From Candidatus Woykebacteria bacterium RBG_16_39_9b (GTDB lineage Bacteria > Patescibacteriota > Microgenomatia > Woykebacterales > RBG-16-39-9b): a stretch of DNA of 25,348 bases. The position numbers and the translations under genes were made by a program. The stretch lies in assembly GCA_001816695.1 (NCBI GenBank), contig MHCR01000002.1:10353-35700 (forward strand), written 5' to 3'. Below are positions 9,096 to 13,655 of the stretch, one piece after another. The stretch's first letter is position 1. Each line of letters opens with the position of its first letter. A model generated the notes under the pieces. That model searched no databases. It was not told the origin of the DNA and was given only the letters and a program-made list of their open reading frames with translations.

Positions 9096-9211
9096 TCTCA
9101 TCATCCTACGGCTAAGAAATATTTGGCCCATGAAGTGGTCGCGGGGTTTTTTGCCATAGCCAAAAAAGACTTGATTGTACTTAGTAAAACACAAGATTTT
9201 GGAGGAGTAAA

Positions 9212-10303
9212 GTGACGAAGAAAGATTATTATGAAATATTAGGAATATCTAAAACCGCTTCAGATACTGAGATAAAAAGTGCCTACCGGAAAAAAGCAAG
9301 AGCGCATCATCCTGATGTGGATAAAAGTGCTGACGCGGAAAAGAAGTTCAAAGAAATAAATGAAGCTTATCAAGTGCTTTCTGACCAGCAAAAAAGAGAA
9401 GCTTATGATCGGTTTGGTCATGATGCATTTGGTGGTGCCAGGCGGGGCACACCAGGCGGTTTTAGCTATCAATACGGCCCAGGAGTAGATGTAAACTTTG
9501 ATTTTGGCGGCTTTGCCGATCCGTTTGAAATATTCGAGCAGTTTTTTGGTGCTCGTTCTCCTTTCGGTGGTTCAGCAAGACGTGGCCCAAGAACTGGCGC
9601 AGATCTTCATTATGAAATAACTATCCCTTTTGAACAAGCTGCCTTTGGAACGGAGAAAAATATTGAAATTCCCAGACACGAAACCTGTTCGGAGTGTTCT
9701 GGCAGCGGTGCCGAAAAGGGTAGTAAGCCGGTTATTTGTCCGACTTGTCAGGGAAAAGGCCGTGTGCAACAGACAGCACAGTCAATATTTGGCAACTTTG
9801 TAACCGCAAGAACTTGCCCAACATGTGGCGGCAGTGGTGAAATTGTTGACAAGAAATGCCCTCTCTGTAAAGGTTCTGGAAGGATTCGTAGCCACAAAGA
9901 AACTACGATCAGGATCCCAGCCGGAGTTGATGATGGTGATACTATTCGCTTCCAAAGTCTAGGAGAAGCTGGAGAAAAAGGAGGCGGTTATGGCGATTTA
10001 TACCTTACAGTAAGAGTAGTTCCCCATAAAGATTTTAAGCGTCGTGGTTATGATATTTACTACGAGCAGCCTATTTCTTTTACCCAAGCAGCTGTTGGTG
10101 GTGTAGTGGAAGTGCCCACACTAGATGGAAACGTGAAGTTAAAAATTCCAGAGAGCACACAAACTGGAACAGAATTTAGACTTCGCGGAAAAGGTATAAA
10201 ACACGACAGCTCTAGAGGAGATGAGTTTGTTCAAGTCAAAGTAATTACTCCCAAAAATCTTTCCTCCAAACAAAAAGAAGCCCTAAAAGAACTAGAAAAA
10301 TAA
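9212..10303 (+). CDS. dnaJ: Chaperone DnaJ
   Basis: J domain with HPD, G/F-rich region and four CxxCxGxG repeats. SD GGAGGAG before the GTG start. Confidence 0.97.
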   Translation: MTKKDYYEILGISKTASDTEIKSAYRKKARAHHPDVDKSADAEKKFKEINEAYQVLSDQQKREAYDRFGHDAFGGARRGTPGGFSYQYGPGVDVNFDFGGFADPFEIFEQFFGARSPFGGSARRGPRTGADLHYEITIPFEQAAFGTEKNIEIPRHETCSECSGSGAEKGSKPVICPTCQGKGRVQQTAQSIFGNFVTARTCPTCGGSGEIVDKKCPLCKGSGRIRSHKETTIRIPAGVDDGDTIRFQSLGEAGEKGGGYGDLYLTVRVVPHKDFKRRGYDIYYEQPISFTQAAVGGVVEVPTLDGNVKLKIPESTQTGTEFRLRGKGIKHDSSRGDEFVQVKVITPKNLSSKQKEALKELEK

Positions 10304-10424
10304 AAAACGAGGCACAGTCAATTAAATGGTTGGTTGATGGCCAATCAAGTAAACGACATATGCCTCGCCCAAAGGGAGGTTTGAGCACAGTAAACGGCGG
10401 AAAGCCGGTTGATCTCTTTGTTGA

Positions 10425-10496
10425 AGCGGACGACGGGACTCGAACCCGCAACCCTCAGCTTGGGAAGCTGATGATCTACCATTGATCTACGTCCGC
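10425..10496 (-). tRNA. tRNA-Gly (anticodon CCC), CCA not encoded
   Basis: Full cloverleaf on the minus strand: GCGGACG/CGTCCGC acceptor, GATC/GATC D-stem, TCAGC-TTCCCAA-GCTGA, GCGGG-TTCGAGT-CCCGT, discriminator U. Confidence 0.95.
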
Positions 10497-10507
10497 TCTT
10501 CCGTTTT

Positions 10508-10583
10508 TGGTCGAGGGGAGCAAGTTAGAACGACAGACTTACGGTATGCAAGCCCAATGCTCCCCCCGCTGATTGTCTGGAGG
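10508..10583 (-). pseudogene. Degenerate tRNA-Ala(UGC)-like relic with encoded ACCA
   Basis: Gapless 76-nt tRNA register: D-loop AGCGGGGG, GAGC, anticodon loop CTTGCAT, variable AAGTC, G-TTCTAAC T-loop and ACCA at canonical spacing. The canonical stems no longer pair. Confidence 0.6.
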
Positions 10584-10916
10584 CCCGGTGGCACACTGGA
10601 TCTCAAATCCCCGCGAGCTAAACCACCAGGCCACGAAGCGGTTGCGATCATGGATATTGCGTCACCACCTTGCAATGGTGAGCACAGACCGCAACCGCCA
10701 GCAGAACAGCCCACAGAGTTGACCCACCGAGGCCCCGCTTGCCCGGAAGATCTTTGGTAGCACCCCAAGACTCTGTGGGTTTGTCCTCGAGTAGGAAATG
10801 AACCTACCGAATAATTGCTGGAGGCAGTGGACGAGCCTTAGGTGTTCGGGATACCTTCGCAGCTGCTGGGGGGAACAGCCGATCTCCGGTCCCTATGCGG
10901 CAACCCGTTCACTGCC
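10582..10916. ncRNA. Candidate structured non-coding RNA(s): tandem long GC-rich hairpins
   Basis: Stems 10582-10591/10623-10632, 10638-10646/10690-10698, 10710-10719/10770-10779, 10791-10795/10803-10807 and 10823-10829/10910-10916. About 58% GC over 10501-10920 by hand count. No credible ORF. Confidence 0.55.
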
Positions 10917-11014
10917 ATAACTTGAAAAGTTCTTTTGCCCTCTTCTTTGCTTCAATAGAAGCACTATTTTGCTTGCCTGTCAAGATATCCTTAACAAACA
11001 AGTTTTTATTTGTC

Positions 11015-11043
11015 TTGACCGGCGGTAACTAATAGTTTATGAT
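11015..11043 (+). promoter_or_regulatory. nusA operon promoter
   Basis: TTGACC-17 nt-TATGAT. Confidence 0.7.
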
Positions 11044-11070
11044 TGGGGTACTTAATTTTTTAATTATAGA

Positions 11071-11103
11071 CTAATAAAGTGGGTTAAAATCCCACTTTGT
11101 TGG
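11071..11103 (+). promoter_or_regulatory. rimP/nusA-leader-like hairpin (attenuator)
   Basis: CTAATAAAGTGGG-TTAAAAT-CCCACTTTGTTGG, a 13-bp stem followed by TTTT. Resembles the AGTGGG...CCCACT leader hairpin of rimP-nusA operons. Confidence 0.6.
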
Positions 11104-11117
11104 TTTTGAGGAGGAAA

Positions 11118-12176
11118 ATGGCTTTAAGAACGGAATTTGCAGCTGCTTTAAATCAGGCTGCAGCTGAACGTGGGGTTGAACCGGAAGAAATTTTAAGAAT
11201 TATAGAAGAGGCTATAAAAGCCGCCTATAAAAAAGATTACGGTGGTGAGACTGAAGATTTGACTGCTGAAATTGATCCAGAAAGTGGAGAAGCTAAAGTT
11301 TTCAAAGAAGACAAAGATGTGACACCTCCGGGCTTTGGTCGAATTGCCGCTCAAACCGCAAAGCAAGTTATCCTACAAAGGATAAGAGAGGCCGAAAAAG
11401 AAGCAATTTTTGCGGAGTATGAAAAGAAGGTTGGTGCAGTGGTCAACGGAATGGTCCAAAGAATCGAGGGGGTAAATACAGTAATTGATTTAGGTAAAAC
11501 AGAAGCAATTATGCCGGCCCCCGAGCGTATGTCGGGTGAGGATTACCGGTTAAATCAGAGGTTAAAATTTTATATTGTTGGAATTCGTGAAAGTTCCAAG
11601 GGACCGGAAATTGTTGTTTCAAGAAGTCACAACGGGCTGGTGGAAGGATTATTTAAATTGGAGGTTCCAGAGATTGGAACAAGTATTGTTGAAATAAAAT
11701 CTATAGCTCGTGAGGCTGGAGCAAGAAGTAAAGTTGCAGTTTCAAGCAGACAGGCAGGTGTTGACCCAGTAGGGAGTTGCGTGGGTCAAAAAGGAGTTAG
11801 AGTTCAAGCTGTAATTGCCGAGCTTGGACACGAGAAAATTGACATAATTGCTTACAGTGATGATTCAGCCAAGTTTGTTTCAGCTGCACTTTCACCAGCG
11901 TCGGTGGATAAAGTTTCGATAGATGAAAAAACTAAGACAGCCCATGTTGAAGTTCCTGAGGATCAATTGTCTCTTGCAATTGGAAAGGACGGCCAAAATG
12001 TGCGTTTAGCAGCAAAATTAACTGGCTGGCGTATTGATATTAAGGGGGCCGAAAGAGTACAGGAAGTCGAAGAAGAAAAAGGAGCAAAACAAGAACCAAA
12101 AGATAAATCAAAATCTGCAAAAAAGAAAATCTTAAAAAATAATAGAAAAAAGAATGAAAAACCAAAAAAGAATTAG
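11118..12176 (+). CDS. nusA: Transcription termination/antitermination factor NusA
   Basis: FGRIAAQTAKQVI, REAGARSKVAV, ACVG-like SCVGQKGVRV and AIGKDGQNVRLAAKLTGWRIDI. Start moved to ATG 11118 after SD GAGGAGG. Confidence 0.97.
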   Translation: MALRTEFAAALNQAAAERGVEPEEILRIIEEAIKAAYKKDYGGETEDLTAEIDPESGEAKVFKEDKDVTPPGFGRIAAQTAKQVILQRIREAEKEAIFAEYEKKVGAVVNGMVQRIEGVNTVIDLGKTEAIMPAPERMSGEDYRLNQRLKFYIVGIRESSKGPEIVVSRSHNGLVEGLFKLEVPEIGTSIVEIKSIAREAGARSKVAVSSRQAGVDPVGSCVGQKGVRVQAVIAELGHEKIDIIAYSDDSAKFVSAALSPASVDKVSIDEKTKTAHVEVPEDQLSLAIGKDGQNVRLAAKLTGWRIDIKGAERVQEVEEEKGAKQEPKDKSKSAKKKILKNNRKKNEKPKKN

Positions 12177-12194
12177 CCTTTCGCTAAAATTCTT

Positions 12195-13655
12195 ATGGAA
12201 AAACAGAAGAAACAAATTACAGTTGAAAATACTCTTACAGTAAAACCTCCGGTGGTCACTATTCTAGGTCATGTAGACCATGGGAAGACTACTCTTTTGG
12301 ACTATATAAGACAAACGAAAGTAGCTGAAAAAGAGCATGGAGGTATTACTCAGCATATAGGTGCATATCAAATAGAATTACAAGGAAAGAAAATCACATT
12401 TATAGACACTCCAGGTCATGAAGCATTTTCCCAAATGAGAAGACGAGGGGGACAAGTCGCTGATATAGCTGTTTTAGTAGTAGCAGCAGATGATGGAGTT
12501 ATGCCCCAAACTAAAGAATCAATTTCGCATATAAAAGCTGCCCAAACCCCTCTTATAGTTGCAATAAATAAAACTGATATCCTCGGAATAAGCGTTGAGA
12601 AAGTTAAAAAACAATTGGCAGAAAATGGAGTTTCGGTTGAAGGCTATGGTGGGGATGTAGTAGCTGTTAATATTTCGGCGAGAACTGGTCAAGGTGTTGA
12701 CGAACTTTTGGAAATGATTTTGCTAACCTCAGAGCTTATAGAACTAAAGACGAATCTAAAGGTAGCATTAAAAGCGATTGTGATTGAATCTAGACTTGAT
12801 AAATACAGAGGTCCGATTGCGACATTACTTATTAAAGACGGGATTTTAAAATTAGGTGAAACAATTTATGGCCAGACAAGTTTTGGTAAGGTGCGAACTA
12901 TGGTTGATTCGAATAATAAACTAGTAAGAGAAGCTCTTCCTTCCACGCCTGTTGAAGTTTCAGGTTTAGAAAAAGTACCTGAGGTTGGTGATATGTTCAC
13001 TACAGTTGAAAGTAAAGCTGTTGCAGTTGAAGCTGAAAAGAAAAAAGTTGACCTCCTGAAATCTATGGAACAAGCGCCGAAGGGAGTAATTAATCTGATT
13101 TTGAAAGCTGATGCAGCCGGTAGTTTAGAGGCGATAGAAGCTTCAATTTATGAGTTATCTAGCGAAAAGCAATCTATAAATATTATTCACAAAGGGACTG
13201 GAGATATTACTGAATCAGACGTTTTATTAGCAGTCCCTACAAAGTCCATTGTTATTGGTTTTAATGTGGAAATAATGCCTTCAACCCAAAAACTAGCTGA
13301 AGAGGAATCTGTTATGATTCGCAGGTTTAATTTGATTTACGAGCTACTAGATGAGCTGAAAGAAGGAATTGCCGATGTTGAGCACAAAAGGAAAGTCAAA
13401 GCTACGGCCGTTATCTTGGCTCGCTTCGAAACAAAGGAAAAGCGTGTACTGGGAGTTAGAGTGAAAAGTGGAATTCTTGAGGGAGACGATCAGATCACTG
13501 TGTATAGGAATAAAGAACCTATAGGAGAAGGTAAAGTTATTTCCATAAAACAAAAAGCAGAAGCTGTAAAATCTGTTTCTAAAGGTGAAGAGTGTGGTAT
13601 AATGCTCGACACTAATGTTGATTTTCAAGAAGGAGATACAATCGAGGCAACATAG
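12195..13655 (+). CDS. infB: Translation initiation factor IF-2 (short, lacking the N-terminal domain)
   Basis: PPVVTILGHVDHGKTTLLD, GGITQHIGAY, DTPGHEAF, GVMPQTKE and ECGI motifs. Confidence 0.96.
   Translation: MEKQKKQITVENTLTVKPPVVTILGHVDHGKTTLLDYIRQTKVAEKEHGGITQHIGAYQIELQGKKITFIDTPGHEAFSQMRRRGGQVADIAVLVVAADDGVMPQTKESISHIKAAQTPLIVAINKTDILGISVEKVKKQLAENGVSVEGYGGDVVAVNISARTGQGVDELLEMILLTSELIELKTNLKVALKAIVIESRLDKYRGPIATLLIKDGILKLGETIYGQTSFGKVRTMVDSNNKLVREALPSTPVEVSGLEKVPEVGDMFTTVESKAVAVEAEKKKVDLLKSMEQAPKGVINLILKADAAGSLEAIEASIYELSSEKQSINIIHKGTGDITESDVLLAVPTKSIVIGFNVEIMPSTQKLAEEESVMIRRFNLIYELLDELKEGIADVEHKRKVKATAVILARFETKEKRVLGVRVKSGILEGDDQITVYRNKEPIGEGKVISIKQKAEAVKSVSKGEECGIMLDTNVDFQEGDTIEAT

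Follow-up and report, generated by a model that had tools for sequence, protein, structure and literature searches.

The GC-rich, strongly folded island between dnaJ and nusA in the window (the whole stretch of 25,348 nucleotides of Candidatus Woykebacteria bacterium RBG_16_39_9b that was analysed) probably represents the remains of a tRNA gene array, a dying tRNA operon, rather than a new large RNA gene. The island spans 10508–10916 and comprises five hairpin units, U1 to U5, which lie on the minus strand just before tRNA-Gly(CCC). U5 derives from a tRNA, closing helices followed by a discriminator base and CCA are in excess on the tRNA strand, tRNA-Gly(CCC) itself carries lesions, and sister genera hold tRNA genes at the same locus. 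We infer that the units are now out of use. An earlier note, made from the letters of this DNA, had offered three readings, namely a novel structured RNA, a very diverged housekeeping RNA, and a decayed and repurposed tRNA array. Decay of a tRNA array is the best supported of the three, through the locus, the N-CCA ends, and the tRNA similarity of U5.

Anatomy of the dnaJ–nusA spacer

The GC content of 10508–10916 is 58.4%, compared with 39.3% for the genome, 32.2% for the spacer on the nusA side (10917–11096), and 38.8% for the end of dnaJ (10100–10300). The earlier count for 10501–10920, 242 of 420 nucleotides (57.6%), was exact, and the motifs quoted with it were all found where it had placed them. 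When 10498–10925 was folded, the minus strand reached −186.5 kcal/mol (z −4.18), a value equalled by none of 100 shuffles, and the plus strand reached −159.2 kcal/mol (z −2.23). The minus-strand fold consists of five independent hairpin domains of 55–113 nt, separated by gaps of 4–11 nt, and the last of them ends 11 nt before tRNA-Gly(CCC). In the direction of the minus strand, the features of the spacer are as follows.

10955–10983, minus strand: candidate promoter of the minus-strand unit, predicted from a perfect −35 box TTGACA (10983–10978), a 17-nt spacer, and a weak −10 box TTCTAT (10960–10955)
10819–10916, minus strand: U1, a 94-nt domain with a 7-bp closing helix GGCAGUG/CACUGCC, followed by U-CCA (z −2.07)
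10785–10807, minus strand: T-arm-like hairpin (10807–10791), GUAGG-UUCAUUU-CCUAC, with a tail resembling an acceptor 3′ strand
10706–10786, minus strand: U2, a branched hairpin and inverted repeat with a perfect 10-bp closing helix, 10710–10719/10770–10779 (z −3.07 for 10706–10818)
10633–10699, minus strand: U3, a hairpin of ~26 bp with a GCAA tetraloop (z −5.52 on the minus and −3.84 on the plus strand)
10578–10632, minus strand: U4, with a 10-bp closing helix that includes one G.U pair, followed by U-CCA (z −2.88 on the minus and −0.56 on the plus strand)
10508–10568, minus strand: U5, with a proline-type acceptor (C1-G72, A73, CCA) and the T-loop UUCUAAC, lacking a D-arm and refolded as a hairpin
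10422–10496, minus strand: tRNA-Gly(CCC), a canonical cloverleaf with the 3′ end UUCA (C74 to U)
10296–10371, minus strand: likely terminator of the array transcription unit, which stands back to back with the dnaJ stop codon and is predicted from a long hairpin (CGAGGCA...UGCCUCG) and the U-run after it

All five units fold better than their own shuffles, with z values on the minus and plus strands of −2.1 and −2.3 for U1, −3.1 and −3.5 for U2, −5.5 and −3.8 for U3, −2.9 and −0.6 for U4, and −3.9 and −1.6 for U5. Units U3 to U5 thus clearly prefer the minus strand, which agrees with the earlier remark that the three 3′-proximal hairpins favour the tRNA strand. The 6-bp helix 10790–10785/10516–10511, suggested there as a long-range closing helix, is present as sequence but is used in neither the minimum-free-energy fold nor the centroid fold. 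With five separate domains, and with no homologues outside one species, the proposal of a single novel structured RNA of ~410 nt is unsupported.

The Rfam search that the earlier note had recommended was run with Rfam 15, both at gathering scores and at E≤10. It returned tRNA-Gly(CCC) alone (10425–10496, minus strand) and no family on the island. ARAGORN agreed, with tRNA-Gly(CCC) as its sole call; at lowered thresholds it gave only weak, mutually inconsistent calls on the island, and these were discarded. Covariance models of catalogued large structured RNAs (OLE, GOLLD, ROOL, HEARO, raiA, and others in Rfam 15) had no match on the island. Protein coding was also considered and rejected: the frames of 92–93 aa on both strands have no Pfam match and are attributed to chance, as such frames are expected in GC-rich DNA.

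The candidate promoter was missed by a consensus promoter scan because of its weak −10 box. Its hexamers are unchanged in the divergent strains L037/L038, while adjoining bases vary. The terminator hairpin was not listed by a terminator scan because its loop exceeds 8 nt. On the nusA strand, an AT-rich tRNA-like relic occupies 11026–11103 (plus strand) and ends at the start of nusA. It contains a clean T-arm, GUGGG-UUAAAAU-CCCAC, at 11079–11095, and scores 18 bits with RF00005 (E 0.14 genome-wide) and E 0.047 for the T-arm with our own tRNA model R1, described below. Its position recalls the nusA operon of E. coli, which is led by the metY tRNA gene.

Probable tRNA ancestry of the units, and the locus

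Of the five long-range helices of the minus strand that are outward-terminal, three, those of U1, U4, and U5, lead into a discriminator base and CCA, and those of U2 and U3 do not. At the local frequency of CCA this excess has a binomial P of 0.0002, a statistic computed after the pattern had been seen; on the plus strand, N-CCA follows 0 of 7 such helices. A 7-bp acceptor helix together with discriminator and CCA is likewise present in U1, U4, and U5 and lacking in U2 and U3. The N-CCA ends matter because all 38 other tRNA genes of this genome encode CCA.

For an unfiltered search of the region we built a covariance model, R1, whose training set comprised 20 of the genome's own tRNAs and 2 tRNAs of relatives. 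The model gave 77.6 bits for tRNA-Gly(CCC), 12.9 bits (E 0.003) for U4, and 11.7 bits (E 0.006) for U5. In U4 the alignment covers the acceptor and NCCA only; in U5 it covers the acceptor, the anticodon region, the variable region, the T-loop, and ACCA, and the D-arm is missing. No island unit reaches the threshold of the tRNA family (29 bits), and both the Rfam search at E≤10 and a genome-wide search with RF00005 were blank there.

The tRNA descent of U5 is clearest in gapped matching to 52 tRNAs. Its best four matches were all proline-type, with scores of 28.0, 21.8, 21.8, and 17.8 against a maximum of 13.2 among 100 shuffles; one is an aberrant Pro-type unit from the array of L020, a relative, and the other three are the full set of tRNA-Pro genes in the genome. 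U5 has C1-G72 and A73, the combination that marks bacterial tRNA-Pro. In a second register, the 76 nt of 10583–10508 match tRNAs without gaps at 40 of 76 positions, about 5 sd above background, and nhmmer gave U5 an E-value of 0.12. An identity as tRNA-Ala was considered. The in-register match is real, but U5 is of the proline type both in its acceptor and in its best gapped matches, so that Pro explains the unit better than Ala, and its G3.U70 pair is most simply a decay product of C70 to U. U5 keeps the T-loop and a possible anticodon loop; the other units lack the conserved features of the D-, T-, and anticodon loops.

Residual tRNA similarity is thus above chance in U5, marginal in U4 and the T-arm fragment, and not above chance in U1 to U3. 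U4 shows marginal similarity to tRNA-Asp in gapped matching. The T-arm-like hairpin at 10785–10807 resembles the 3′ end of the genome's tRNA-Asn at 19 of 24 positions, a local alignment that alone is no better than shuffles; its R1 score (7.2 bits, E 0.12) is suggestive only of a tRNA fragment. The interior of U1 has no tRNA similarity by R1 or by gapped matching to the 52 tRNAs, and neither method found any in U2. Removing a 22-nt inner hairpin from U1 leaves exactly 76 nt, yet by inspection the remainder forms no cloverleaf. The first 14 nt of U3 match the variable region and T-stem of the neighbouring tRNA-Gly at 12 of 14 positions (a direct repeat), and its tail CCGC-UUCG matches the 3′ end of that tRNA. 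These matches are suggestive only of kinship; comparison of U3 with the 52 tRNAs revealed no global similarity.

The locus itself was compared across the family. The order dnaJ–spacer–nusA is kept in 10 of 16 family genomes, with spacers from 107 nt (in one genus) to 1320 nt. The spacers of L014, L019, L020, and L021 hold one to five well-formed tRNA genes (45–87 bits) on the strand opposite nusA, and from this comparison the position, strand, and packing of the island are those of the relatives' tRNA arrays. In L025, three tRNA genes lie upstream of nusA. The tRNA-Gly of the window and its flank align (71%, 101 nt) with an L014 array member that has an identical acceptor stem and an intact UCCA.

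Some array members of the relatives are odd in their own right. In L014, L020, and L021, tRNAs with Gly-type acceptors (GCGGAAG/GCGGACG, U73) carry the anticodons GGG or CUG and a non-U33; other members are a Pro-type unit with a 4-nt anticodon loop and one 110-nt tRNA with an insert (L021). The dnaJ–nusA spacers of three sister genera also share a conserved element of ~110 nt (L014:2822-2951, L018:2912-3040, L012:889-1021; 72–86% identity). It combines a 12-bp hairpin, in which compensatory and G.U changes favour the tRNA strand, with the invariant tail GUCUCAYCGCCGCACCCCC. No Rfam family matches the element, and a model of its own (R2) found no counterpart in the window.

The tRNA-Gly(CCC) next to the island is damaged as well. 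Its 3′ end is UUCA in seven strains, including that of the window, and it is thereby the sole exception to the encoded CCA of the 38 other tRNA genes. In strains L035/L033, the T-loop is enlarged by a 35-nt insertion, which folds into two small hairpins (one resembles a T-arm) and lengthens the tRNA to 110 nt; L035 retains UCCA, and the L033 contig stops before the 3′ end. Two independent lesions of this gene are therefore segregating within the species. Several metagenome contigs break at the insertion point. A second tRNA-Gly(CCC), with CCA, is encoded at C14:20273-20347. A search of this genome for a CCA-adding enzyme (PF01743) was negative, and just 2 of the 17 genomes of the family encode one. 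The lesions, together with this negative search, indicate relaxed selection on the operon.

Elsewhere in the genome, too, broken tRNA copies adjoin real tRNA genes, a further point in favour of a decayed array. A tRNA-Arg copy without a D-arm lies 3 nt after tRNA-Arg(CCU) (C7:15175-15236). At C9:4701-4891 and C21:5754-5990, an older tRNA-Val is split in its anticodon loop and holds a complete tRNA-Val(UAC) there; a 15-nt GC hairpin marks the junction, immediately ahead of the 3′ piece of the outer gene.

Proposed decay of the array and competing explanations

The relatives identified through NusA are named Ca. Woykebacteria (Patescibacteria). In public data, NusA matches fall at 98–100% identity and then at no more than 84%, so that one species of the genus is represented. 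Its assembly (594,602 bp in 31 contigs, 91.7% complete) is the smallest of the family, the others measuring 0.7–1.1 Mb. The ancestor of the species would have had several tRNA genes between dnaJ and nusA, directed opposite to both, as in several of the sister genera today. In this lineage, with the smallest genome of the family, the array may have become dispensable and its members damaged one by one. The units can be arranged as such a series, which would run from tRNA-Gly(CCC), a cloverleaf without encoded CCA, to the proline-type U5 without a D-arm, then to U4 and U1, which keep an acceptor-like closing helix and N-CCA, along with one T-arm/acceptor fragment, and finally to U2 and U3, hairpins that are no longer recognisable. 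If the unit is still transcribed from the TTGACA box at 10983 to the terminator at 10371–10296, cleavage by RNase P would be expected ahead of every acceptor-like helix and would give by-products, not functional RNAs.

Two observations speak against tRNA relics. Units U1 to U3, about 60% of the island, have no tRNA similarity beyond the closing helix, and the island is still 58% GC, when the genome is at 39% and neutral spacers are at ~32%, and each of its units, U3 most of all (z −5.5), outfolds its shuffles. Substitutions numerous enough to wipe out tRNA similarity should have eroded GC and pairing too, so that the explanation needs either indels or insertions, or else selection on structure. 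The interiors may have become long hairpins through internal deletions, through small hairpin insertions like that in the tRNA-Gly T-loop, or through template-switch 'correction' of imperfect palindromes; template switching can perfect quasi-palindromes. Such events could explain the retained GC and folding without selection. The interiors are less clean than the acceptor-like helices and the CCA ends, a difference that could be due to ascertainment or to selection.

Searches for relatives of the island returned nothing beyond the species. BLAST detected no homologue in 61 relatives, blastn and nhmmer drew a blank on the relatives' syntenic spacers, and a U2+U3 covariance model matched nothing in 150 genomes of the class. 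The genome contains no second copy and no recurrence of any island hairpin, phages and plasmids have no similarity to it, and exact 22–27-mers of its hairpins are absent from 185,579 species genomes. A metagenome scan gave a sole match, from the same species. Six RNA runs that share words with the stretch match the tRNA-Gly part only, through tRNAs of other organisms; three of the six were aligned to it, and no RNA reads on the island were found.

Within the species, ~13 strain contigs carry two SNPs in the island, at 10654 (unpaired) and 10837 (which breaks a weak predicted pair). Two SNPs leave no room for the covariation by which the earlier note would have judged function. The scarcity of SNPs is uninformative on constraint, since the island lies in one recombination tract common to all strains. 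Across 9200–12700, compared with L027-L039 and L064, SNPs are patchy: tracts with 5–8% divergence in dnaJ, nusA, and infB stand beside identical kilobases. This pattern indicates frequent within-species recombination.

The folding that survives in the island might instead mean that the decayed array has been put to new use. It would then still be transcribed with tRNA-Gly, and RNase P together with 3′ trimming would free stable CCA-ended hairpins that have acquired a role. They might serve tRNA-binding enzymes as minihelix substrates or decoys, for instance, or act as stabilisers or insulators between dnaJ, which is convergent, and nusA, which is divergent. Consistent with this, GC and strong, strand-specific folding are kept in all five units, closing helices and N-CCA are intact where interiors have diverged, and a putative promoter with a perfect −35 box and a putative terminator still bracket the unit. 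In the divergent L037/L038, moreover, U1 has 0–1 differences in 72–85 nt and the adjoining 180-nt spacer has 13–14. However, the island has no homologue in other genera, no covariation, and no RNA reads, the co-transcribed tRNA-Gly is damaged in every sampled strain, and the shared recombination tract accounts for the few SNPs. We regard such reuse as unlikely, and it is less likely still that the units are tRNA-derived, CCA-ended hairpin RNAs released by RNase P from a tRNA-like operon and used, e.g. as minihelix ligands or decoys of synthetases or RNase P. It is decidedly unlikely that the island is a stack of small non-coding hairpin mobile elements in and between tRNA genes, with duplicated tRNA ends as the CCA-ended helices. 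This explanation draws on the 35-nt hairpin-forming T-loop insert of tRNA-Gly, present in some strains and absent in others, on the complete tRNA-Val that interrupts another tRNA-Val in its anticodon loop, where a GC hairpin marks the junction, and on the 110-nt tRNA with an insert in L021. Presence/absence polymorphism was seen for the T-loop insert and for no island unit. Taking out candidate hairpins restores no tRNA, although the local covariance-model search allows such skips, and no hairpin recurs in the genome, the relatives, phages, plasmids, or the species genomes, the metagenome match being to the same species. As nothing recurs elsewhere, the explanation lacks its defining feature; it overlaps with the dying operon, for which hairpin insertion is a possible mechanism of damage.

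We give almost no credence to a highly diverged housekeeping RNA (RNase P RNA, tmRNA, SRP RNA, or 6S RNA) or another catalogued large RNA, and this reading of the earlier note was rejected. The size and GC content of the island do resemble those of RNase P RNA or tmRNA, and small SRP RNA, large SRP RNA, and 6S RNA were not found anywhere in the genome. Against it, RNase P RNA was located at C10:11839-12212 and tmRNA at C26:27881-28240, the island has no Rfam family at E≤10, and five separate hairpins are unlike the single long hairpin of 6S RNA. The SRP system was not found in the family: SRP RNA (RF00169), the Ffh M domain (PF02978), and the SRP54-type GTPase domain of Ffh/FtsY (PF00448) were detected in 0 of 17 family genomes, closed ones included, whereas in controls both SRP protein families were present in 14 of 14 genomes and RF00169 in 12 of 14. 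No SRP RNA is expected where the SRP proteins are missing across the family, and an SRP RNA hidden in U2, for which Rfam gives no support, was rejected for the same absence. As an observation in its own right, these results suggest that the family may have lost the SRP pathway altogether, a loss for which a literature search turned up no report. The lack of Ffh, FtsY, and SRP RNA across the family may matter more than the island, and so may the near-complete reliance of the family on genome-encoded CCA.

Significance and comparison with known systems

If the island is indeed what remains of a tRNA array, it would offer a clear case of tRNA gene death in a shrinking genome, with graded stages that lead from a cloverleaf no longer encoding CCA, by way of a tRNA lacking its D-arm, to hairpins reduced to an acceptor. 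It would also serve as a warning for the AT-rich genomes of candidate-phyla-radiation (CPR) bacteria, where a folded, GC-rich island next to a tRNA gene is not automatically a new RNA gene. Should the CCA-ended hairpins be used after all, they would be a natural counterpart of laboratory minihelices, in an ultra-small bacterium of groundwater in which no CCA-adding enzyme was detected.

Several hundred nucleotides in length, GC-rich relative to its genome, and strongly folded, the island is comparable to OLE, GOLLD, ROOL, HEARO, and raiA; GOLLD and ROOL often occur near tRNAs. Unlike these RNAs, it matches none of their Rfam models, lacks one overall architecture, and is not conserved across genera. 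Acceptor-stem minihelices with CCA, known from Schimmel-type work, are the smallest substrates that RNase P, CCA-adding enzymes, and certain aminoacyl-tRNA synthetases accept. U1, U4, and U5 are built alike, as hairpins with a closing helix of at least 7 bp, a discriminator base, and CCA, and U5 adds C1-G72, G3.U70, and A73; the known minihelices are laboratory constructs, whereas the units are known from sequence alone.

Bacterial tRNA pseudogenes and partial copies beside tRNA genes, such as att-site duplications made by integrative elements, also lie in tRNA loci. The island shares with them acceptor-like CCA ends, a T-arm fragment, and one clearly tRNA-derived unit, and the genome has other partial copies. 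Unlike att-type copies, the units are found on the upstream, not the downstream, side of the intact tRNA and are not repeats of its 3′ end; most of their interiors are unrelated GC-rich hairpins, and there is no integrase or cargo. The arrays of L014, L019, L020, and L021 differ from the island in that their members score as tRNAs in the range given above and the units score at most 13 bits. In other respects they are alike, with the same locus and strand, tight packing (spacers of 3–11 nt), and encoded CCA. The L014 array shares a GCGGACG-type member with the window, and L020 has a Pro-type unit similar to U5.
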